A stretch of 32,000 bases of DNA, taken from Candidatus Altimarinota bacterium. GTDB taxonomy: Bacteria > Patescibacteriota > Gracilibacteria > UBA1369. Location: positions 1,796 through 33,795 of the forward strand of contig JBAZYK010000005.1 of NCBI GenBank assembly GCA_041659405.1, read 5' to 3'. The position numbers were made by a program, and so were the translations under genes. How positions within the stretch are numbered: the stretch's first letter is position 1; the number at the start of each line of letters is the position of its first letter. The notes beneath the pieces are model-generated. The model had not been told where the DNA came from. It did no database searches and worked only from the letters and a program-made list of their open reading frames with translations. Shown one piece after another: positions 1 to 26,689 of the stretch.

Positions 1-127
1 GTGAATCCCCAACATGGTTTAACCTATTATTTTCTTAAATTCATTACCATTCTTGAGTGATTTTAGATATTTTTCTCTTTTCATTGCCTCTGCTCTCGTT
101 TTAAATAATTCTTTATATATAAGCATG
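1..127 (-). pseudogene. Truncated 3' fragment of the GIY-YIG nuclease gene (last 35 codons, stop codon and 18-nt 3' flank)
   Basis: 127/127 nt identical to 163..289. Read on the minus strand it encodes MLIYKELFKTRAEAMKREKYLKSLKNGNEFKKIIG*, the C-terminus of the intact gene at 181..420. The 5' two-thirds of the gene is missing and is replaced directly by the tRNA-like element at 128..173. Confidence 0.75.
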
Positions 128-173
128 GAATGCCCCGCCATGGCGGGGTGCCTTACCACTTGGTGAATCCCCA
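128..173 (-). repeat. tRNA-like element copy H1, containing the 16-bp perfect palindrome CCCCGCCATGGCGGGG
   Basis: Minus strand reads TGGGGATTCACCAAGTGGTAAGGCACCCCGCCATGGCGGGGCATTC. It differs from copy H2 (446..492) by one substitution and one 1-nt indel. The first 11 nt of a third copy sit at the window edge (1..11). Confidence 0.7.
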
Positions 174-180
174 ACATGGT

Positions 181-420
181 TTAACCTATTATTTTCTTAA
201 ATTCATTACCATTCTTGAGTGATTTTAGATATTTTTCTCTTTTCATTGCCTCTGCTCTCGTTTTAAATAATTCTTTATATATAAGCATGAATGGAAGTCG
301 CTTTCTTGTTGATTTTACTCTTCCTTTATTGTGATAACTCAATCTTTGTTCTAAATCACTACTTTGTCCTATGTAACATTTCCCATCTTTCTTGCTCCTC
401 AACACATATACATAGTACAT
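181..420 (-). CDS. Small GIY-YIG domain nuclease (URI/UPF0213-like, 79 aa)
   Basis: 79-aa ORF. N-terminal YYVYVLRS...GKCYIGQSSDLEQRLSYHNKG matches the GIY...YIG motif pair. A conserved R (STRKR) and E (AEAMKREKYLK) follow. Confidence 0.9.
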   Translation of the reverse strand: MYYVYVLRSKKDGKCYIGQSSDLEQRLSYHNKGRVKSTRKRLPFMLIYKELFKTRAEAMKREKYLKSLKNGNEFKKIIG

Positions 421-433
421 ACTTCAGAATAAT

Positions 434-492
434 ATTCGACCCCCCGAATGCCCCGCCATGGCGGGGTGGCCTTACCACTTGGCGAATCCCCA
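434..492 (-). repeat. tRNA-like element copy H2 (pseudo-tRNA 5' part: acceptor, D-arm, palindromic anticodon-like arm, variable region, half a T-arm)
   Basis: Minus strand: TGGGGAT-TC-GCCA-AGTGGTA-AGGC-C-A-CCCCG-CCATGG-CGGGG-CATTC-GGGGG-GTCGAAT. The D-arm GCCAAGTGGTAAGGC is canonical. The anticodon-like loop has only 6 nt (CAT in the centre). The 3' T-stem and acceptor strand are absent, so this is not a functional tRNA as it stands. Confidence 0.45.
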
Positions 493-579
493 GTGTTTGA
501 ACGCACAATCTTGCAACGCTGTATGGCAAAATGTGCCCATTAAATTTAACAAAAAATGGCTGAAAGTCAACGTCATCAC

Positions 580-610
580 AAAAAGAGCCCTGATAGCAGA
601 GCTCTTTTTA
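580..610 (-). terminator. Putative intrinsic terminator of the minus-strand surface-protein operon
   Basis: AAAAAGAGC-(12 nt loop)-GCTCTTTTT inverted repeat, 27 nt downstream of the stop at 637. A- and T-tracts flank it, so it could act in both directions. The G/C core of the stem is short. Confidence 0.4.
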
Positions 611-636
611 ATTTGAATGTTTAATTATGATAACTT

Positions 637-3495
637 TTACGCTTTTCCTGTTTTTCCGGCTTTGCGTCTTAAGAAAAATGCAATTGGCAGTGTTAACAAC
701 AAATAATAACTTTCCGGGCCGGTTTGGGTAATTTCCAGTGGCAATGGCTCAGAAGAAGCCGCACCATGCAAAACGGTTGTAGTTGTTTTTGTTGTGCCGG
801 TTGCAGTTGCCGGCGTGGTTATGTTTACAGATACTGTTTCTGAAATTGCTTGATTAATAACTCCCGCAGCTGCTGGCGTTGTTGTGTTTGTGGAAACCGT
901 TTCTGAAATTGCCTGATTGATAAATCCTGTGGAAACCGGCGCAGAAGCGCTTGAAGAAAATCCTGTTTCAGCTGCAATTGATCCACTTTGCTCTGGGGCA
1001 ACCGGAGGTGTTGGGGCCGATGGGGCCTCTGTGTTGTCTACAACCGGTGCAGAAATTGAATCCGAACCTGACCCTAGGCCGCCATCTGATAATGGATCTG
1101 TCGGTGGATTTTTGGGCAAACTTGCTGAACCACTATATGGAACATAATCTGTTGGAGTAGTTGTTTTGGTGGCTGTTGGTTGGTTTTGAGCAATAGGCTC
1201 AACAATTGGCGTACCAGTTGTGGTTGGCTGGGTGTCTGGTGGTGCATCTGTCTTCTTTGGCTCATCTGTGGCGGCAGGGGCAACCGTTTTTTCAGCTGCC
1301 ACTGGCGACGAACAGATCGCAAATCCTCCCATTAACTGGCCATCGCTAACAGTTGTTAAATCAATGTTTGGAAGACTACCGGTGGTTGTTCCAGTGCTTG
1401 TCCCGCTGCCGGAACTTGTTGTTACTTGATCCGGATTTCCAAGAACCGTTTCAAGCGAAGTTGTAATTGGCTGTGGATTGCGCTGAGAATCTGTACAGGC
1501 TGTGCTTGAAGTTGGCGGAATAATGTTTCCATCGCGGACCAAAGTATTTCTTAAATCGGCAATTTCACGACTTAAAGTAGGTCTTAAAGAAGTCGTTTTT
1601 TGATCTGTGCTTAAAATTAAATCAACCAGTAACTGTTGTTTCAATCGATCACTACCGCTTGCAATTCTGCAGCTTTGATCGGCAATTTTATTTGATATAT
1701 TATCGTAAACGGCTTGCCATTGTTGATTTCTGTAGGCATCCTGAATGTCTTTATCCTGCTGCTGACAACTATTGAGAGTTGCAGGAGTTGTGGTCAAACC
1801 CGTGCCCCCGGTTGTAGTTGTTGTTGAGCCTGTTGTGGTCGTGGTCGTTCTTGTGTTTGAAGTCGATGTTGAAACCGCCCCTCCGGTTGTTAGTGTTGAT
1901 CCTCCTGTTGCTGTAGTTGATCCTCCTGTTGTTGTCGTTGGTGGAGTTACGCCCACTGTTGTCGATGTTGTTCCTCCTCCTGTTGTTAAATTTGTATTGG
2001 GAGTTGTTGAACTTGTGGTTGTGGTCGTAGAGCTTGTTGTGGTTGTTCCTCCTGTTGTAGGAGTTGTGGTTGGTGTTGTTGAGCTTGTGCTTGCCGTACA
2101 AGCATCATTCCAAGTTTTAAGATGAGAAATTGTTGAAGAGCTCAAAATATATTTATCCTGATTTGTGTAAAGTTCGCTTATTAAGAAGCAGTCATTTGGA
2201 TTGATTCGACTACAAACCGGAGCGCTTGGCGTGGATGAGGTTGATGATCCGCCCGTTGTTGGATTTGGCGTGGTTGAGCTGGAAGTTGGTCCTCCTACTG
2301 TTAAATTCGGAGATCCGGCCACTGCGGATGATGGTGGGGTTCCTCCTACTGTTAAATTCGGAGATCTTACTGCTGCAGATGTTGATGGTGTTCCTCCTAC
2401 TGTCATTGCCGGAGAACCTACTATTGTTGCCGACGGTGATCCTCCTACTGCGTTATTACCAACGGGTGCCGCATTATTCAATACTCCACTATTTGCTGCC
2501 GGAGCTTCCCTTAAATCTGGGATTTGGTTGCTGACTGCAGCCGCGGGCGTGTTACTAATACTTGGGGCTACTGCATTTGAAACCTGATTAGCTGCAGGAT
2601 TATTTGCAATGACTTGAGCGTTATTAGCAACCGCTGCCGCGCCTTGATTAGAAATAGGGGCCGGAGATGGATAATAAACATTGGTGTAATCTGGCTGAGA
2701 TAGCCCCGGTGAAACTTGGTTTATCAAGTTACTAACGTTAGGGGCTGCTGCAGGTGAACGTAAGGCGGAAAGATCAGCGCCAAAATTATTTCCGGAAGTT
2801 GTGGTACTTGTACTTGCTTTTGGAGCATATGTATCGATAGCGCAAGTTTGAGGTACCGCTGTGATATCACCCTTTAAGTTACTGCTTGATCTAAAATAAA
2901 TTGCTGCAGCCACTCCACCTAAAACCAGCAAAACTCCACCAACAATCAAAGCGATTTTCAGATGAGACATTGGTTGGTTTTCCGGTGGCGATGTGAGTTC
3001 GGTTAAACTTAAATCGGTCGCATAAAAGTCTGATGACAATTGCGCGGGATTTTTAACCGGCACTTCTGCCTGTGGCTGACCTGTACCTTTTTGAAGATTG
3101 GTAAAAGAAGTCGCTTCGACTGCCGGTTTTGGAGCTGTGGCTGTTTCCGGTACAGCTTCTTTTTTGACTGGAGCGGTGGCTGGTTCCGGTTCCACCACGG
3201 TTTCTTTTTCAGCAGTTTCAGTCGCAGCCGGAGTTTCCGGTGCAGCCGGAGTTATAGACTCAAGCGAGATTGGTTTCGGCTTTACTTCTTCAGGTGCTTT
3301 TTCCGGCAAAGCTTGAACAACCGGCATAGAAGTTTCCGCTTTTCCATCAACATTAAAAAAAGTCGAAGTATCATTTGCTACGCTGCTTTTAGGTTCGGCG
3401 CTTGGCACGGAAGCAAGACCCGCATCGCCCGTATTTGGGCTTGTGCCGCCCGTGCCCATGCCGTTTCCGGCATTTAAGTTTGTGTCTGGTTCCAT
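637..3495 (-). CDS. Thr/Ser/Pro-rich mucin-like surface protein with an N-proximal TM helix and a C-terminal tripartite sorting signal (952 aa)
   Basis: 952-aa ORF. TM helix LKIALIVGGVLLVLGGVAAAIYF at about aa 190. Long T/S/G/P tracts (TTTTSSTTTTTSSTT...). A Cys-bracketed non-repetitive domain (CQQQDKDIQDAYRNQQW...TAC). The C-terminus reads ...LEITQTGPESYYLLLTLPIAFFLRRKAGKTGKA, i.e. motif, hydrophobic stretch, basic tail. Confidence 0.8.
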   Translation of the reverse strand: MEPDTNLNAGNGMGTGGTSPNTGDAGLASVPSAEPKSSVANDTSTFFNVDGKAETSMPVVQALPEKAPEEVKPKPISLESITPAAPETPAATETAEKETVVEPEPATAPVKKEAVPETATAPKPAVEATSFTNLQKGTGQPQAEVPVKNPAQLSSDFYATDLSLTELTSPPENQPMSHLKIALIVGGVLLVLGGVAAAIYFRSSSNLKGDITAVPQTCAIDTYAPKASTSTTTSGNNFGADLSALRSPAAAPNVSNLINQVSPGLSQPDYTNVYYPSPAPISNQGAAAVANNAQVIANNPAANQVSNAVAPSISNTPAAAVSNQIPDLREAPAANSGVLNNAAPVGNNAVGGSPSATIVGSPAMTVGGTPSTSAAVRSPNLTVGGTPPSSAVAGSPNLTVGGPTSSSTTPNPTTGGSSTSSTPSAPVCSRINPNDCFLISELYTNQDKYILSSSTISHLKTWNDACTASTSSTTPTTTPTTGGTTTTSSTTTTTSSTTPNTNLTTGGGTTSTTVGVTPPTTTTGGSTTATGGSTLTTGGAVSTSTSNTRTTTTTTGSTTTTTGGTGLTTTPATLNSCQQQDKDIQDAYRNQQWQAVYDNISNKIADQSCRIASGSDRLKQQLLVDLILSTDQKTTSLRPTLSREIADLRNTLVRDGNIIPPTSSTACTDSQRNPQPITTSLETVLGNPDQVTTSSGSGTSTGTTTGSLPNIDLTTVSDGQLMGGFAICSSPVAAEKTVAPAATDEPKKTDAPPDTQPTTTGTPIVEPIAQNQPTATKTTTPTDYVPYSGSASLPKNPPTDPLSDGGLGSGSDSISAPVVDNTEAPSAPTPPVAPEQSGSIAAETGFSSSASAPVSTGFINQAISETVSTNTTTPAAAGVINQAISETVSVNITTPATATGTTKTTTTVLHGAASSEPLPLEITQTGPESYYLLLTLPIAFFLRRKAGKTGKA
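800..925 (-). repeat. Two in-frame ~63-bp tandem repeats inside the 952-aa CDS
   Basis: ctgtttctgaaattgcttgattaataa (from ~834) recurs as ccgtttctgaaattgcctgattgataa (from ~897), period 63 bp. At protein level: FINQAISETVSTNTTTPAAAG / VINQAISETVSVNITTPATA. Confidence 0.8.
2285..2455 (-). repeat. About four in-frame 51/48-bp tandem repeats inside the 952-aa CDS
   Basis: cctcctactg starts at 2291, 2342, 2393 and 2441. cctcctactgttaaattcggagatc is identical at 2291 and 2342. At protein level: (G/R)SPNLTVGGTPPSSAVA-type 17-aa units. Confidence 0.85.
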
Positions 3496-10885: not shown

Positions 10886-11914
10886 TTAAAGACCCGGGTT
10901 TGTGGGCAAACTTGCCGGCGAACTTGAGCCGGCTTTTTCGGAGCCGGTGGTCGGTTGCAGGGTTACAACGGTGTTCACAATTCCAAAAGCAGCCATGGCC
11001 AATAAAAGACCTATGGTAGCCCCAATAAAGACTTTCTTGGCTTTAGCGGTGTTATCTTCTTTACCAAAAGCAATAACATAAAGGTAACCTCCATAAATGA
11101 ACATAATTGCTGCGACAGTTGCGGCGAATCCGGAAATAAAATTGGTTAATTTTACCACAAATTGCGCGGCGACTACGGTATTTGGCAGTGTTTTTCCCTG
11201 ACTTGGGAAAAGTACATCTTTGATCGCAAATTCGGAAATTCCAATCACAATCAGACCTACAACGGCCCACATAATCTGTTTTTTAACCTTACCCTGAACT
11301 TCTTCATTGCCGGCGCCAATAACCAAACGGAAACCTCCAATTACAATCATCAAAATTGCCAAAGCGGCGGCAAAATATTCCATAAAACTGTAGAAGCCTT
11401 TGATGGTTTCGGTCCCCTGTTTGGCCGCATCTAAAAGCTCCGCCTGGCTGCGATAAATCTCGCCCTGAGCGCCCCAAAATACTTTTACAACCTGATCGGC
11501 AATAATAATAACGAGCAGACCAATAATCGCATATTTAAGGTTTTCTTTTTGTTTATCCGCGATCTGATCAACCTGGCGGCCCGAGGTAATCAGACGAATT
11601 CCGGAAACAATAATCATAAAAATGGCAATAGTGCCCATTACATATTTTGCAAAATCAATCGCATACCAAACGGCGCTTGTGATGTTGCTTGCGCCCGATT
11701 CAATCGAGGCGTTGGCATTGGCGTTGGTGTTGTAAGTGGGAAGTCCAATATTGTTTTCGAGTTGATTTAAAACTCCACCCGGAGACTGAGCATTGGTTTG
11801 GGCATTTGCCGGAACTGTCAGGGTCAAAACAAGGCTGGCCAAAATCAAAAATCCACACAGTGGAATAACTGTTTCTTTTAGAATTTCGCTAATTTTTTGG
11901 ACGAACTTTTTCAT
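10886..11914 (-). CDS. Secreted/membrane protein made of three tandem VirB2/TrbC-like pilin modules (342 aa)
   Basis: Signal peptide (...LTLTVPANAQ). Three modules of hydrophobic helix, G-rich turn, charged loop, hydrophobic helix: IAIFMIIVSGIRLITSGRQVDQIADKQKENLKYAIIGLLVIIIA; LAILMIVIGGFRLVIGAGNEEVQGKVKKQIMWAVVGLIVIGIS; VAAIMFIYGGYLYVIAFGKEDNTAKAKKVFIGATIGLLLAMAAFGIVNTVV. Confidence 0.85.
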   Translation of the reverse strand: MKKFVQKISEILKETVIPLCGFLILASLVLTLTVPANAQTNAQSPGGVLNQLENNIGLPTYNTNANANASIESGASNITSAVWYAIDFAKYVMGTIAIFMIIVSGIRLITSGRQVDQIADKQKENLKYAIIGLLVIIIADQVVKVFWGAQGEIYRSQAELLDAAKQGTETIKGFYSFMEYFAAALAILMIVIGGFRLVIGAGNEEVQGKVKKQIMWAVVGLIVIGISEFAIKDVLFPSQGKTLPNTVVAAQFVVKLTNFISGFAATVAAIMFIYGGYLYVIAFGKEDNTAKAKKVFIGATIGLLLAMAAFGIVNTVVTLQPTTGSEKAGSSSPASLPTNPGL

Positions 11915-11934
11915 TTTTATTTTAAAATTTATTT

Positions 11935-12984
11935 TTATTGACCCGGCAGAGTCCCGCCGGTTGGTTGTGTCACTTGTCCGTTGCCGCTGGTGCCAAAATT
12001 TCCGGAAATAATTGTGCTCACAATGGCAAAAGATCCATACATGATAATAATTCCAACAAGAGCTGAAACAATGATTCTTTTGGCTTTCCCCTGAGTTTCT
12101 TCATTGCCCGCGGAGGCAATATACATAATGCCGCCCGCAACCAGAGCTATGATGGCGATAGGGCTAACGATACTTAAAACCATGTTGGTGAATCCCACCA
12201 ATTCACTTACGCCCTGAGCGGGATTGAATGATGGCGCCGCTCCTCCAACAGTGGGGTAACGTGTAACATCAACTTTGTAGAAGACGTTGTTGATAATCGG
12301 ATCGGCAATAATAATCAAGAATAAGCCCAGCGCGCCATAAGCAAGGTTCTTTTTATCCAGGGCAATTTTGTCTTCCGCGCTGCCCATTGCAATCATGCGC
12401 ATGCCACTTCTGACAACGAAAAAAACCGAAATCGCGCCAATAAGATATTTGATGAAAGTTACGATAAATTTGGCTTTTTGGTCAAAAATAGTCACCGAAC
12501 GGATAATCGCATTTGGGTCTTTTAAAAAGCCTCCCTGCGTACAGGCAAGTCCGGAAAAGTCCTTACCGTTTTCACAATAAACCGAGAAAATACGGGCAAG
12601 ATCTCCGGAAAACCCAACAACCGCCAAGCCGATTATGCCGTAAATGATGGTCGATCTTTGCTTGGTATAAACTTCTTCATTTCCGCCGCCAATAACCATT
12701 CTGATGCCGGCATAGACGATTAAGCCTACAGCAACAGCTCCCAAAAGATAGCGCACGTTTTGGATAACGCTTAAGGCTAAGCTAAAAACTTGAGCGGAAG
12801 CACTGCCTTGCGCCGGAGCCTGCAAGCCGCTGTAGCCCGGCGTGGAAATACTTGGCAAAGGCAAAGTGGTGGTGGTCTTTGCGTTTTCGGCTAAAGCTAA
12901 AGGCATACTCGCAGTTAATACAACCGCTAAAGTTGCGCTAAAAATTGCCAATTTGACCAAGAATTTGTTTATTTTTTTGAGCAT
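11935..12984 (-). CDS. Paralogous protein with three tandem VirB2/TrbC-like pilin modules (349 aa)
   Basis: Signal peptide (...ASMPLALAEN). Modules: VAVGLIVYAGIRMVIGGGNEEVYTKQRSTIIYGIIGLAVVGFS; ISVFFVVRSGMRMIAMGSAEDKIALDKKNLAYGALGLFLIIIA; IAIIALVAGGIMYIASAGNEETQGKAKRIIVSALVGIIIMYGSFAIVSTII. It has the same architecture as the gene 20 nt downstream. Confidence 0.85.
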   Translation of the reverse strand: MLKKINKFLVKLAIFSATLAVVLTASMPLALAENAKTTTTLPLPSISTPGYSGLQAPAQGSASAQVFSLALSVIQNVRYLLGAVAVGLIVYAGIRMVIGGGNEEVYTKQRSTIIYGIIGLAVVGFSGDLARIFSVYCENGKDFSGLACTQGGFLKDPNAIIRSVTIFDQKAKFIVTFIKYLIGAISVFFVVRSGMRMIAMGSAEDKIALDKKNLAYGALGLFLIIIADPIINNVFYKVDVTRYPTVGGAAPSFNPAQGVSELVGFTNMVLSIVSPIAIIALVAGGIMYIASAGNEETQGKAKRIIVSALVGIIIMYGSFAIVSTIISGNFGTSGNGQVTQPTGGTLPGQ

Positions 12985-14771: not shown

Positions 14772-15500
14772 ATGAACAAATCCAACTTATTCACGCTTTT
14801 TTTGGCTGGAGTATTGGTTGTCATCGGCTCGGAACTTTTGGTGGATGATTATTTAAAAACGCCCGTTTTAAAAAATTCTCAAGCGGATGTTTTGGATGTA
14901 GGGGCGGCGACCACTCAGGGAAGCGCAAACGCGCAGACTAAAGGAACGCAAGCTCTTTCGACCTTAGCGCAAACCGCGAAAACCGCGAATGTGCAAAATG
15001 CCCAGGTTGCTCCTGCGCAAACTACTACCGGGCAAATCGCTCAGATTTCCGCTTTGCAAAACCAAGAGGCCGGTGGCCCGCAGATCACCTTTTCCATGAT
15101 AATAAAGGCGGGTTTTGCTCAAACTACCCTGCAGCGTGCCCCATTTACCGGCATGCTTTTTGATACGATCGATCTTCAAAACTCTTTGTCCGTACCGGTT
15201 TTGCAGCAATATCTGTTAAAAAACAATGTGGCGCGGGCGGCGACTTTCTATGAAATCCATCTTCAAAATAAAGAAATGGCCGGCGAGGTTTTCAGCTTAA
15301 TAAAGCAGAAAGCTGCTGCTCAAGCCGGAGCCCTTTTAAACGCTTCAAACGGTTTTGGCGAAGGGTCGTTTTATATCAATTATTTAGATAATACAAATCA
15401 TGCATTTTTAGTTGTCAAAAAGGGATCGAGTGTGTATGCTCTGACTTACGTGAAGGACTACCATCCTTATATCGCCAAGCTTATTCAATTATTACCTTAA
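14772..15500 (+). CDS. Hypothetical N-terminally anchored protein inserted between nusG and rplK (242 aa)
   Basis: ORF starts 2 nt after the nusG stop. It has an N-terminal hydrophobic helix ([18 protein letters not shown]), a Q/A/T-rich linker and a C-terminal globular part. No known motif. Confidence 0.7.
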
Positions 15501-23812: not shown

Positions 23813-25318
23813 ATGTGTGGAATTCTCGGCATTATGGCCAATGAACCTGTGGCACAACAGCTCTTTGATGGGTTGACCGGCTTGCAGCATCGCGGGCAGG
23901 ATTCCGCGGGAATTATGACCTATGAAGACCATTTCAACCTGAAAAAGGGTAATGGCCTGGTTCGTGACGTTTTTCACACCAAAAACATGATGCGTTTGCG
24001 TGGAAATATGGGCATCGGGCACGTGCGTTATCCAACAGCAGGAAGCAATGATGCGGCCGAAGCTCAGCCTTTTTATGTTAACTCCCCTTTTGGACTTTCG
24101 CTGATCCACAACGGAAATTTAACCAACTATGATGAACTTAAACAGGAAGTTTTAAGAGTTGATTTGCGTCATTTAAATACAAAATCCGATTCCGAACTTT
24201 TGTTAAATGTTTTGGCAACGGCTTTGCGTGGCATTAAAACCACAGTTTTGACTCCGGAAAAAATCTTTGAAGCCATGGAAAGCGTTTTTAAGCGTCTAAA
24301 AGGCAGTTATTGCGTAATTGCTTTGATTGCTGATTACGGTATGTTGGCTTTTAGGGATCCTTATGGCATTCGTCCGCTGGCATTTGGAAAGCGCGATCAT
24401 AATCTGATGCAGGAATACATTATCGCTTCTGAAACAGTGGCAATTGATACTTTGGGCTTTGATTTTGTGAGTGATATTCAGCCCGGTGAAGTGATTTTTA
24501 TTGATATGAAGCGCAATGTGCACCGCAAGAATCTTGCCAAGCCAAAGTGGGCTCCCTGTATTTTTGAACACGTTTATTTGGCCCGCCCCGACTCGATTAT
24601 GGACAATGTGAGTGTGTATAAAACACGTTTGCGCATGGGCGTAAAATTGGCTCAAAAAATTAAAAAAGCAAATCTGGATATTGATGTGGTGGTTCCCGTG
24701 CCGGATTCTTCCAGAAGTGCGGCTTTGCCATTGGCGCAGGAGCTGGGCGTAAAGTACCGTGAAGGTCTGGTTAAAAACCGCTATATTGGGCGAACATTTA
24801 TTATGCCGGGCCAGGAGATCCGCAAAAAATCCATTCATTATAAATTGAATACCATCAAATTGGAGCTTAGAAATCGCAATGTTTTGCTTGTTGATGACTC
24901 GATTGTGCGTGGAAATACTTCAAAAAGAATTATTCAAATGGTGCGTGATGCCGGAGCCAAGAACGTGTATTTTGCTTCATGCGCACCTCCGCTAATCAGT
25001 CCCTGTGTTTATGGTGTTGATTTGCCGTCAAAACATGAATTTGTAGCGCATGAACTTTCGACTGATGAAATCTGCAAAGTGATTGGCGCCGATGCGCTGT
25101 TTTATCAGGATATGCAGGATTTGTTGGATTCCGCCCAGGAAGGAAATCCTAAAATTACCGGCTTCTGTCATGCCTGTATGAACGGTAAATATCCAACTCC
25201 GGAAGTTACAAAGGAGCTGTTGGATAAGGCCGAAGCAACCCGTGGCGCAATGCAAAAAGCTGAAAACGTGGGTGATTCAGGCGATGATATTAAAGATGAA
25301 CAACTAACTTTGATTTAA
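23813..25318 (+). CDS. purF: Amidophosphoribosyltransferase (glutamine-PRPP amidotransferase)
   Basis: N-terminal MCGILGI (Ntn Cys1), GLQHRGQDSAGI, HVRYPTAG, the PRPP-binding loop VLLVDDSIVRGNTS, and a C-terminal Cys cluster (CVYGVD...CHAC). Confidence 0.95.
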   Translation: MCGILGIMANEPVAQQLFDGLTGLQHRGQDSAGIMTYEDHFNLKKGNGLVRDVFHTKNMMRLRGNMGIGHVRYPTAGSNDAAEAQPFYVNSPFGLSLIHNGNLTNYDELKQEVLRVDLRHLNTKSDSELLLNVLATALRGIKTTVLTPEKIFEAMESVFKRLKGSYCVIALIADYGMLAFRDPYGIRPLAFGKRDHNLMQEYIIASETVAIDTLGFDFVSDIQPGEVIFIDMKRNVHRKNLAKPKWAPCIFEHVYLARPDSIMDNVSVYKTRLRMGVKLAQKIKKANLDIDVVVPVPDSSRSAALPLAQELGVKYREGLVKNRYIGRTFIMPGQEIRKKSIHYKLNTIKLELRNRNVLLVDDSIVRGNTSKRIIQMVRDAGAKNVYFASCAPPLISPCVYGVDLPSKHEFVAHELSTDEICKVIGADALFYQDMQDLLDSAQEGNPKITGFCHACMNGKYPTPEVTKELLDKAEATRGAMQKAENVGDSGDDIKDEQLTLI

Positions 25319-25354
25319 TAGTCGTCCGCCATTCTTAATTCGTAATTCGTCCAA

Positions 25355-26689
25355 ATGCCTCGCATTCTTTTAATTGGAAATGGTGCCCGTGAACACGTGA
25401 TTGCCGAAACTTTGCAAAGGGGCGGAGCTGAAATTTTCACCTATGGAAAAGCCAGAAACCCGGGTCTTTTAAAGCTTTCCGCGGACTATGAAGTTGGCGG
25501 CTATAAAACCAAAGAGGATTTTGAGCACCTTAAAAGTTATGCCCGCAAAATCAAACCGGATTTTGCCTTTGTAGGGCCGGATGATCCGATTGCTGATGGA
25601 GTGGTTGATCTATTATTGGCGGAGGAAATCCACTCTGTGGCGCCACTGCAAACTGTGGCGAGGCTGGAATCTTCCAAGTCTTTTACGCGTGATCTTGTAG
25701 CCAAATATAAGATTCCGGGAAATCCGTTTTTTAAAGTTTTCCGTACCGAGGATGGCGCAAACGTGGGTAAATCCATGGAAGATTTTATGAAAGAACTTGA
25801 TGGCAATTATGTGGTGAAGGCTGATGTTTTGATGGGCGGCAAGGGCGTAAAAGTTTCCGGAGAGCATTTGGCAACGATCAAAGAAGGTGTGGCTTATGCG
25901 CAGGAATGCCTGCAGGCTGCGGAAAAAGTGGTGATCGAAGAAAAATTTATTGGCCAGGAATTTAGTTTGATGAGTTTTTGTGATGGATTGCACACGGTGG
26001 AAATGCCAGCGGTTCAGGACCATAAACGCGCTTATGATGGCGATCTTGGGCCAAATACCGGTGGAATGGGTTCTTACGGCGATGCCAATCACTCGCTCCC
26101 ATTTTTAAAGGCGTCCGACCTTGAAGAGGCGCGGAATATCACCCAAAAAGTGGCTCGTGCGCTGTTTCAGGAAACCGGCGCGTATTTTAAAGGAATTATG
26201 TATGGTGGATTTATTGCCACTGCAAATGGCGTGCGGCTGATTGAATACAATGCCAGGTTTGGTGATCCGGAAGCCATGAATGTGTTGCCGATTTTAAAAA
26301 CAAATTTTGTTCAGGTTTGCCAGGCGGTTATAAACGGTGATCTTAATCATTTGAAAGTCGAGTTCGAGAATAAGGCTACAGTCTGCAAATATATCGTGCC
26401 GGAAGGTTATCCGGAAAAACCGGTCAAAGGCAAAAAAATTGAAATTGGAAAAATTCCGGATGGTGTTAATCTGTACTATGCTTCGGTTGATCAGACCGAT
26501 GAAGGACTGATTTTAAGTTCATCCAGGGCTGTTGCATTGGTCGGTATTGCGGATACGATCGCCGAAGCGGAAAAGATTGCCCAAAGTGCCTGCGCCTCCG
26601 TTAAAGGGCCGGTATTCTATCGCAAAGACGTTGGAACGGATGAACTCATCCAGAAACGTGTGGAGATGATGAAGAAGCTGCGAGGGTAG
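25355..26689 (+). CDS. purD: Phosphoribosylamine-glycine ligase
   Basis: ILLIGNGAREHVIAE, the ATP-grasp core (VVKADVLMGGKGVKV, EEKFIGQEFSL), NTGGMG and EYNARFGDPE are canonical PurD motifs. Confidence 0.93.
   Translation: MPRILLIGNGAREHVIAETLQRGGAEIFTYGKARNPGLLKLSADYEVGGYKTKEDFEHLKSYARKIKPDFAFVGPDDPIADGVVDLLLAEEIHSVAPLQTVARLESSKSFTRDLVAKYKIPGNPFFKVFRTEDGANVGKSMEDFMKELDGNYVVKADVLMGGKGVKVSGEHLATIKEGVAYAQECLQAAEKVVIEEKFIGQEFSLMSFCDGLHTVEMPAVQDHKRAYDGDLGPNTGGMGSYGDANHSLPFLKASDLEEARNITQKVARALFQETGAYFKGIMYGGFIATANGVRLIEYNARFGDPEAMNVLPILKTNFVQVCQAVINGDLNHLKVEFENKATVCKYIVPEGYPEKPVKGKKIEIGKIPDGVNLYYASVDQTDEGLILSSSRAVALVGIADTIAEAEKIAQSACASVKGPVFYRKDVGTDELIQKRVEMMKKLRG

Follow-up and report, generated by a model that had tools for sequence, protein, structure and literature searches.

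The window analysed here is a stretch of 32,000 nt from a Candidatus Altimarinota bacterium (contig C5, JBAZYK010000005.1, positions 1796-33795), whose genome, G000 below, is assembled as 1.51 Mb in 21 contigs. At its left end, on the minus strand, lies a small gene for a stand-alone GIY-YIG nuclease, placed between two truncated and hairpin-bearing copies of a tRNA gene, called H2 and H1. Read along the minus strand, the order is a promoter-like site, H2, the nuclease gene, one or more partial repeat units and finally, outside the window, an intact tRNA-Gln(UUG) gene. The features of this part of the window are the following.

580..609, minus strand: terminator-like hairpin after a 952-aa surface-protein gene (inverted repeat I3, with 13-nt arms that are 92% complementary, then a T run)
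543..570, minus strand: promoter-like site upstream of H2, TTGACT, 16 nt, TG-TAAATT, matching a sigma-70-like consensus
434..492, minus strand: H2, a pseudo-tRNA-Gln of 59 nt, in which tRNA positions 1-24, with one C added, are followed by a hairpin substituting for the anticodon arm and then by positions 43-60
451..466, strand not applicable: perfect 16-nt palindrome CCCCGCCATGGCGGGG in H2, a YCCCG-type hairpin of the GC class, with a 6-bp stem and a 4-nt loop
421..433, minus strand: 13-nt spacer ATTATTCTGAAGT, from the T-loop break to the ATG
181..420, minus strand: intact gene for a 79-aa single-domain GIY-YIG nuclease, stop codon included (PF01541, E 2.8e-19)
174..180, minus strand: 7-nt leader ACCATGT, between the nuclease stop codon and H1
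128..173, minus strand: H1, a pseudo-tRNA-Gln in which positions 1-25, with an A for G10, are followed by the hairpin and by CATTC (positions 43-47); present in all three available assemblies
133..148, strand not applicable: second copy of the 16-nt palindrome, in H1 (inverted repeat I1, direct repeat D5)
19..127, minus strand: truncated gene copy, the last 108 nt (codons 45-79 and stop), 100% identical to the gene
1..18, minus strand: leader ACCATGT and the first 11 nt (TGGGGATTCAC) of a next H1 copy, ended by the window edge and a gap of ten Ns (N10)

A preliminary description of this stretch had reported H2, the open reading frame (ORF), H1, a 127-nt repeat, the palindromes, the start of a third element and a CATTC pentamer; all were found again at the same places on the minus strand. 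It had also proposed that the two elements derive from a tRNA, and the tRNA in question proved to lie on the same contig. The window begins directly to the right of the N10 scaffold gap (C5 1786-1795). Leftward of this gap come one further gapped unit, one unit carrying three single-nucleotide polymorphisms (SNPs), and then an intact tRNA-Gln(UUG) gene with encoded CCA (C5 1433-1507, some 290 nt past the window edge), which terminates the array. This gene begins 7 nt from the last repeat unit and is preceded by ACCGTGT, the counterpart of the ACCATGT leader. The 3′ T-stem and acceptor strand of the tRNA are absent from the window, as had been noticed; they are nevertheless present close by, in this intact gene, which had been overlooked.

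The first 24 nt of H1 and H2 are all identical to tRNA-Gln(UUG) (24/24), as is the CATTC pentamer of both elements. The sequence of H2, read from 492 to 434, is TGGGGATTCGCCAAGTGGTAAGGCC-A-CCCCGCCATGGCGGGG-CATTC-GGGGGGTCGAAT. Its 3′ part (positions 43-60), CATTC GGGGG GTCGAAT, ends abruptly at the end of the T-loop, up to which the segment 43-59 matches the intact tRNA at 18 of 19 places, with one change. In both elements, the anticodon arm of tRNA-Gln(UUG), CCGCC-CTTTGGA-GGCGG, is swapped for the palindrome CCCCGCCATGGCGGGG. We concluded that both elements are copied from the 5′ part of the neighbouring tRNA-Gln(UUG) gene. ARAGORN, which the preliminary description had suggested, and Rfam made no tRNA call on either element. 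Their hairpin has a loop of 4-6 nt, where an anticodon loop has 7, and they lack the 3′ T-stem and acceptor strand; neither H1 nor H2 forms a complete cloverleaf. We also considered that they might be functional or intron-containing tRNAs. This was rejected, as there was no ARAGORN or Rfam match, and as the only 3′ half that follows the ORF is that of a complete tRNA.

Within the genome, the 46-nt tRNA-like element is restricted to this locus, and the nuclease gene is present as one intact copy of its type. A UPF0213-like paralog, 35% identical, lies on contig C12, and a third PF01541 match was found inside a 771-aa open frame of contig C14. The other glutamine tRNA gene, tRNA-Gln(CUG) on contig C16, has its first 32 nt and its whole T-arm in common with tRNA-Gln(UUG), and carries no cassette.

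The nuclease belongs to the single-domain GIY-YIG proteins of less than 150 aa, with PF01541 spanning residues 1-71 of its 79 residues. Residues Y5, Y16, R26, H30, E62 and K66 are invariant in 30 homologs, and we take these to include the two motif tyrosines, the arginine, the histidine and the catalytic glutamate of GIY-YIG enzymes. The AlphaFold2 model (pLDDT 94.7) consists of one compact GIY-YIG domain, and the structures nearest to it are UPF0213 proteins, the Slx1 nuclease domain, the I-TevI catalytic domain and UvrC-N. No additional DNA-binding domain was detected in the 79-aa protein, either by Pfam or in the model.

A genome of the same genus, G001, provides the empty site: its tRNA-Gln(UUG) is 100% identical, its upstream flank is syntenic, and it has no GIY-YIG homolog. 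This is the pattern typical of a selfish insertion, here of a small GIY-YIG gene at a tRNA gene, as had been suspected. H2 and the region upstream of it, promoter-like site included, align at 77% with the tRNA-Gln of G001 and its upstream flank. H2 therefore stands where the tRNA was ancestrally, next to its original promoter, and the functional tRNA now lies displaced further downstream. The promoter-like site at 543..570 is the sole sigma-70-like site in window positions 1-800 and in C5 1300-2450, and consensus scans detected no second one between it and the intact tRNA. It is thus probable that the nuclease gene and the tRNA are both transcribed from the old tRNA promoter, the site being a consensus match, which alone is no proof of function. 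On the downstream side synteny is lost: the gene found there in G001 matches positions 4498-5418 of contig C7 in G000, and the right border of the insertion can therefore not be read. The 3′ side of the tRNA bears a rearrangement or island of its own.

The same arrangement recurs in other genomes. A genome search found three loci in relatives with a 5′ tRNA fragment bearing a GC hairpin, then a GIY-YIG gene, then an intact copy of the same tRNA, which was tRNA-Gly(GCC) twice and tRNA-Leu(UAG) once. The closest database homologs (63-73% identity) all lie at tRNA-Gln genes and have the same type of hairpin at the anticodon-arm position, either CCCCGCC-NN-GGCGGGG or TCCCGCC-NN-GGCGGGA. Among genomes of the same family, one other, G024, has this clade; its locus follows the same design, with the hairpin CCCCGCCCTGGCGGGG.

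We then surveyed 63 named homologous loci, collected from GTDB species genomes by means of a 9-sequence alignment. Most are from Patescibacteria, and the set also takes in a few metagenome-assembled genomes (MAGs) labelled Gemmatimonadota, Gammaproteobacteria, Ignavibacteria, Bacteroidota and Planctomycetales. At 57 of the 63 loci, a tRNA gene was present on the same strand at most 355 nt from the nuclease gene, and usually within 50 nt; at about 46 loci, this tRNA was repeated as a partial copy across the ORF. This copy is the 5′ part of the tRNA when the tRNA lies downstream of the ORF, and the 3′ part when it lies upstream. Hairpins of the form YCCCG...CGGGR were found within 200 nt of the gene at 49 loci (3.3 per kb near the gene; outer flanks, 0.10 per kb; whole G000 genome, 0.019 per kb).

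Two types of cassette were distinguished in the glutamine clade. In type A, to which the present locus belongs, tRNA positions 1-25 are followed by the hairpin replacing the anticodon arm, by positions 43-60 and by the ORF. In type B, positions 1-18 are followed by a double hairpin in the D-loop, by positions 19-26 and by the ORF. The point at which the pseudo-tRNA breaks off varies among close relatives (T-loop, position 65, position 26, or anticodon loop). Of G000 and 400 further genomes sampled from the phylum, G000 alone contained the exact type-A motif; as written, this motif is rare or too strict. The pseudo-tRNA pieces showed a trend towards a perfect 5′ piece and at least one change in the 3′ piece, to which we give no weight, as it is confounded by the variable fragment ends. 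Our searches of a library of papers turned up no account of small GIY-YIG or Ssn genes (see below) placed within partial tRNA duplications. This kind of cassette is widespread and apparently undescribed.

The relation between hairpin, protein and tRNA was analysed on a tree of 64 proteins, with the hairpin class defined by the base following YCCCG (C or A). The type of tRNA changed 16 times on this tree, compared to a mean of 29.1 after shuffling (none of 200 shuffles was as low), and the protein of the window fell in a clade where 24 of 29 sequences are at tRNA-Gln. The hairpin class changed only 3 times, against 16.2 in shuffled data (a value that low in none of 500 shuffles). At three tRNA-Gln loci, the protein belongs to the other clade, and the hairpin is the TCCCGAT hairpin of that clade. 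Hairpin class therefore tracks the protein tree, which argues that the hairpin is inherited together with the nuclease gene and is not dictated by the type of tRNA. The closest homologs keep their hairpin even when the local anticodon stems are CCAGG/CCTGG or GTGGA/TCCAC. The palindrome had at first been described as the arm of a tRNA; its persistence in relatives with different tRNA-Gln anticodon stems identifies it instead as a conserved YCCCG-type hairpin. For the same reason, we rejected the possibility that it is a decayed local anticodon arm.

Comparable stems were observed at other tRNA genes of G000. On contig C10, the minus-strand tRNA-Pro(CGG) gene (15381-15456) stands between direct repeats some 50 nt long, each of which contains a CCCCGCC-WW-GGCGGGG stem (hairpins at C10 15335-15350 and 15492-15507) and a second hairpin; no GIY-YIG gene was found near these repeats. 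Similar stems follow tRNA-Leu(CAG) on C5 (around 60500), and occur as terminator-like hairpins on C9 and C16.

The known system closest to this association of a hairpin with a small nuclease is that of the Ssn proteins. As shown by Chenal et al. 2025 (PMC11893778), small GIY-YIG proteins of the cd10448 group (SsnA) bind a hairpin repeat (NTS/SRM) in single-stranded DNA (ssDNA), and cleave the DNA upstream of this repeat. The cleavage that characterises the Ssn family is site-specific, and double-stranded DNA and RNA are left uncut. The ssn genes are often flanked by hairpins, and the authors noted the hairpin-gene-hairpin layout, similar to that of an insertion sequence (PMC11893778). The word tRNA does not occur in the main text of that article. 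In our hands, the gonococcal ssnA ortholog was recovered with seven flanking NTS copies, and the published SRM expression finds all 7. The present cassette is similar to these in several respects. Ssn proteins have a single GIY-YIG domain and about 80-95 aa, compared to 79 aa here, and the family profile matches the gonococcal ssnA ortholog with 97.7% probability. Both systems have short GC hairpins with a YCCCGC...GCGGGR core, CCCGC/GCGGG being common to NTS and to this cassette, and the NTS stem TCCCGC/GCGGGA is the second hairpin stem of type-B cassettes. Hairpins are also found on both sides of the gene, with H2 upstream, H1 downstream, and CCCCGCCAAGGCGGGG 24 nt after the intact tRNA. The differences are that the hairpins have 16 nt here, whereas 20-50 nt are stated in PMC11893778, that they are placed inside truncated tRNA copies, where they usually replace the anticodon arm exactly, and that only 29 such hairpins are present in this genome. 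The cassette probably resembles the Ssn/hairpin pair in the way it works; that it belongs to the Ssn group is unproven.

Two more distant systems share some of these traits. Mobile GIY-YIG ORFs of fungal mitochondria (for example in Allomyces atp6) bring with them a duplicate of the end of the host gene. There as here, a partial duplicate of the invaded gene flanks the ORF and one functional copy is kept, but their hosts are protein-coding genes of eukaryotic organelles, the ORF is often fused in frame, and neither hairpin nor tRNA is involved. The other system is that of the repetitive extragenic palindromes (REP) and their associated tyrosine transposases (RAYT), related to IS200/IS605, in which a small nuclease gene is likewise tied to short palindromes, thought to be targets as ssDNA hairpins. 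The comparison with REP/RAYT was drawn by the authors of the Ssn study themselves (PMC11893778). The RAYT enzyme is however an HUH tyrosine transposase, unlike the hydrolytic GIY-YIG, and REPs exist as hundreds of dispersed copies which are not in tRNA genes.

Our preferred explanation, which we consider fairly probable, is that the locus is a tRNA-Gln(UUG) transcription unit carrying a mini-cassette, made of the gene for a 79-aa stand-alone GIY-YIG protein and of a conserved GC hairpin. It rests on the layout, the empty site, the recurrence in other genomes, the linkage of hairpin and protein and the intact catalytic residues, all of which were observed. The hairpin would be the cognate site of the nuclease, by analogy with Ssn, where the hairpin is bound in ssDNA and the nick is made beside it. 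The nuclease gene would be expressed by read-through from the tRNA promoter, and the host would tolerate the cassette thanks to the full tRNA copy that is kept. Spread would be rare and would proceed by recombination, with the flanking tRNA-derived segments as homology arms. Nicks at the hairpin might stimulate this recombination, and cutting of intact tRNA genes would play no part in it.

Several points weigh against this explanation. Expression by read-through, recognition of the hairpin by the enzyme and the way in which the cassette spreads are inferences. That hairpin and protein are inherited together demonstrates linkage rather than recognition, and labels are shared between related sequences; the clustering of tRNA types on the tree could result in part from long vertical residence with repeated loss. 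Homology arms alone also leave the switches to new tRNA types unexplained (about 5 changes above the tree minimum). The SRM pattern, HGTCWYN(0-2)YYVSBRHN(0-5)WNVSBRGN(0-2)RNCYNB, which includes a GTCAT-type 5′ flank, was matched neither near this gene nor at any of the 63 loci, and its genome-wide yield was 1 match, compared to 1-4 in simulated genomes. The 7-bp stem was found at 6 other sites of the genome where there is no GIY-YIG gene, at terminator-like positions among others. The idea that the element might be scattered over the genome independently of GIY-YIG genes therefore holds for this stem, and not for the 46-nt element. Finally, the family profile matched the gonococcal ssnA ortholog (97.7% probability, E 1.7e-12), and the UPF0213-like paralog of G000 at least as well (99.0%, E 2.8e-18). 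The best PDB sequence matches are also UPF0213 proteins, PDB containing no Ssn structure. Profile comparisons thus fail to separate cd10448 from UPF0213, and the subfamily is ambiguous.

A bolder proposal, which we regard as tentative, is that the hairpin-substituted pseudo-tRNA, as cognate ssDNA site, and the mini GIY-YIG enzyme constitute an autonomous and undescribed class of mobile element. The almost universally conserved tRNA sequences would act as homology arms. During replication or uptake of DNA, nicking at the hairpin would promote the copying of the element into unoccupied tRNA genes elsewhere, in other genomes, and would also make pseudo-tRNA arrays such as that of the window grow locally.

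Alternatively, the cassette could spread by classical homing, the enzyme cutting intact double-stranded tRNA-Gln genes (for instance in the T-loop), and repair of the break from the occupied allele copying the cassette. A precedent exists in SegB of phage T4, described in PMC2330249 as a GIY-YIG homing endonuclease of the tRNA gene cluster that recognises a T-psi-C stem-loop motif of tRNA genes. Like SegB, the present gene lies among tRNA genes and is present or absent among related genomes, as the empty site of G001 illustrates. The pseudo-tRNA breaks at the T-loop here and in the type-A relatives, and the protein clades accompany tRNA types, both as homing would have it. Seg proteins are larger, with DNA-binding domains: in them and in I-TevI the catalytic domain is joined to a DNA-binding domain, whereas the protein found here is the bare catalytic domain of 79 aa. 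Moreover, the T-even Seg genes are placed between genes, and come with neither a partial tRNA duplication nor a conserved hairpin, while here the would-be target stands intact beside the gene. Any recognition site within the tRNA gene would stay intact both in the occupied allele, whose complete wild-type tRNA-Gln is identical to that of the empty site, and in the near-identical tRNA-Gln(CUG) on C16, which is empty. The break positions, in addition, differ among close relatives. Because the wild-type tRNA persists, tRNA-Gln(CUG) is unoccupied and a DNA-binding domain is lacking, we rated homing lower than the preferred explanation, and consider it unlikely.

Just as doubtful, in our opinion, is a domesticated host function, that is, a resident Ssn-like system which would for instance restrict or modulate incoming ssDNA, and would reside in a tRNA operon for its expression, being no longer mobile or never having been so. 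In Neisseria, SsnA modulates natural transformation through hairpin repeats (PMC11893778). Conservation of the catalytic residues across distant homologs fits with such a function, as do the occurrence of the same stem elsewhere in the genome and the finding of the same core structure in three assemblies of the population, where it appears fixed. The distribution is however patchy (G001 has no cassette, the type-A motif is missing from all 400 further genomes sampled from the phylum, and one other genome of the family has the clade), and 29 hairpins are too few for genome-wide marking. Partial tRNA duplications and arrays of pseudo-tRNAs are also insertion scars, and not features of a housekeeping gene.

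That the tRNA fragments are remnants of the att sites of an element moved by a site-specific recombinase is highly improbable. It is true that tRNA genes are the classic integration sites, that in integrase islands too a partial tRNA duplication flanks the insert while the tRNA stays functional, and that the 3′ side of tRNA-Gln(UUG) does have an att-like repeat of its last 19 nt and hairpins on contig C7. Such islands nevertheless have a 3′ duplicate and a recombinase, whereas the fragments found here are 5′ parts located upstream of the tRNA (3′ parts in some relatives), the insert is of about 330 bp with the nuclease alone and no recombinase between promoter and tRNA, and the anticodon arm is replaced by a conserved hairpin.

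The att-like repeat on C7 was looked at in its own right. Positions 1335-1440 of C7 (about 105 nt) repeat the last 19 nt of tRNA-Gln(UUG) and the three hairpins that follow this tRNA on C5, with a variant middle hairpin. The adjoining segments, C5 1-1432 and C7 1-1334, encode a lipoprotein, an S-adenosylmethionine (SAM) methyltransferase and a 299-aa ORF. They may together represent an island in the 3′ end of the same tRNA-Gln(UUG), lying across the contig break; in what is assembled of these two segments, we saw no recombinase. Exact repeats of 20-25 nt of tRNA 3′ ends were also found about 80 nt and about 710 nt downstream of tRNA-Ser(UGA) and tRNA-Pro(UGG) (C4 45758-45806; C9 77855-77879). 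These are att-like scars of other insertions.

It remained to examine the repeat units between the nuclease gene and the tRNA, which had been described as a tandem array of cassettes, repeatedly inserted. There is a single intact gene, and the extra copies are local duplicates of a 162-nt unit, made of the pseudo-tRNA and the last 108 nt of the nuclease gene. Window positions 1-127 repeat positions 163-289 at 100% identity, over the last 108 nt of the ORF, the leader and 11 nt of H1. The "tandem array" at the window edge is thus a local partial duplication. H1 is fused straight onto codon 45 of the nuclease gene, the junction being CATTC-C-ATGCTT, with CATTC present in both partners; it contains one C beyond what a clean CATTC-mediated deletion would yield. 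The deletion that had been proposed in one unit is nonetheless supported. The 162-nt units could have arisen by unequal exchange between two tRNA 5′ copies, followed by deletion at CATTC.

The junction preserves the reading frame, so that each unit contains a 52-aa chimeric ORF (19-177, minus strand). This ORF starts at the ATG of the leader, reads H1 as codons, and ends with the last 35 residues of the nuclease in frame; it is recorded as a called gene in two other assemblies. Its product is probably inactive, since the half of the protein with GIY, YIG, the arginine and the histidine is missing.

The preliminary description had also asked for an extension to the left, and for a check on whether the perfect 127-bp duplication is an assembly artefact. 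In an independent assembly (ENA ERZ27249449, contig k141_1531747, 106,011 nt, identical elsewhere) and in the JGI contig Ga0172379_10149171, one truncated, SNP-bearing unit was found, and the order in both was H2, gene, H1, truncated gene (3 SNPs), tRNA-Gln. Compared to these, contig C5 has about 300 extra bases, which correspond to two further units, one of them split by the N10 gap. The gene-type alleles of the truncated copy are AAAACGAGAGCAGAGGCAATG, against the copy with 3 differences in the other assemblies. When the JGI metagenome contigs were scanned for the H1/truncated-gene junction, either allele being allowed, the SNP-type contig alone was matched. The core structure and one unit, which all three assemblies have, are therefore solid, while the perfect 127-nt copy (window 1-127) is found solely in the gapped scaffold. 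The number of units above one is uncertain, and assembly may have inflated the array. Identical units of 162 nt would be merged by an assembler working at k=141, so that neither of the two copy numbers can be taken as proven.

Other genomes have such arrays too: the loci L091, L096, L107 and L067 hold two or three consecutive pseudo-tRNA copies, and L048 has nested fragments. Local arrays are therefore recurrent, and not peculiar to this assembly. At these five loci and at L056, runs of two to four hairpin-bearing pseudo-tRNAs flank the nuclease gene and the intact tRNA, on a single side or on both; at L048, the ORF extends into the second pseudo-tRNA (103 aa).

As to the possibility that the repeat structure in its entirety results from a wrong joining of repeats by the assembler, the N10 gap inside the array, the perfect 127-nt repeat, which exceeds typical read k-mers, and the independent assembly shorter by some 300 nt might have suggested it, but we give it hardly any credit, given that three assemblies, drawn from two or more sources of data, agree on the core order, that the same architecture is seen in dozens of unrelated genomes, and that the doubt is limited to the extra identical units, already allowed for in the preferred explanation.

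A few observations were made on the rest of the window. The neighbour of the locus is a 952-aa ORF rich in threonine, serine and proline (637-3495, minus strand), with 63-nt tandem repeats at 803-928, and a C-terminus made of a hydrophobic segment followed by basic residues. Its C-terminal part and its terminator are conserved beside tRNA-Gln in the same-genus genome. The best, weak Rfam matches of this terminator-like hairpin (580..609) were terminator-type small RNA models, all below threshold. Inside this ORF and on the opposite strand, ARAGORN called a 99-nt tRNA-Arg(CCG) at 3107-3205 (plus strand), with its anticodon at position 41. This is probably a false positive, and no Rfam tRNA match reached the gathering score in the window. 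Further on, two neighbouring genes with a type IV secretion system (T4SS) pilin domain were found at 10886-12984 (minus strand), and a purF/purD-like pair (amidophosphoribosyltransferase-like and glycinamide ribonucleotide (GAR) synthetase) at 23813-26689 (plus strand). Purine synthesis genes are notable for a small-genome bacterium of the Candidate Phyla Radiation (CPR) type.

Small stand-alone GIY-YIG genes are very common in CPR and other bacteria, and most are annotated simply as "GIY-YIG nuclease family protein". Their nearly constant nesting in partly duplicated tRNA genes, the conserved hairpin and the inheritance of hairpin and protein together offer a concrete hypothesis for the nature and persistence of these genes. 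They would also link the Ssn ssDNA nucleases to tRNA genes, a link unmentioned in PMC11893778. At the level of the genome, the cassettes disrupt assemblies, give rise to pseudo-tRNAs and to small ORFs of chimeric origin, and part tRNA genes from their promoters, and they affect the annotation of tRNAs in MAGs.

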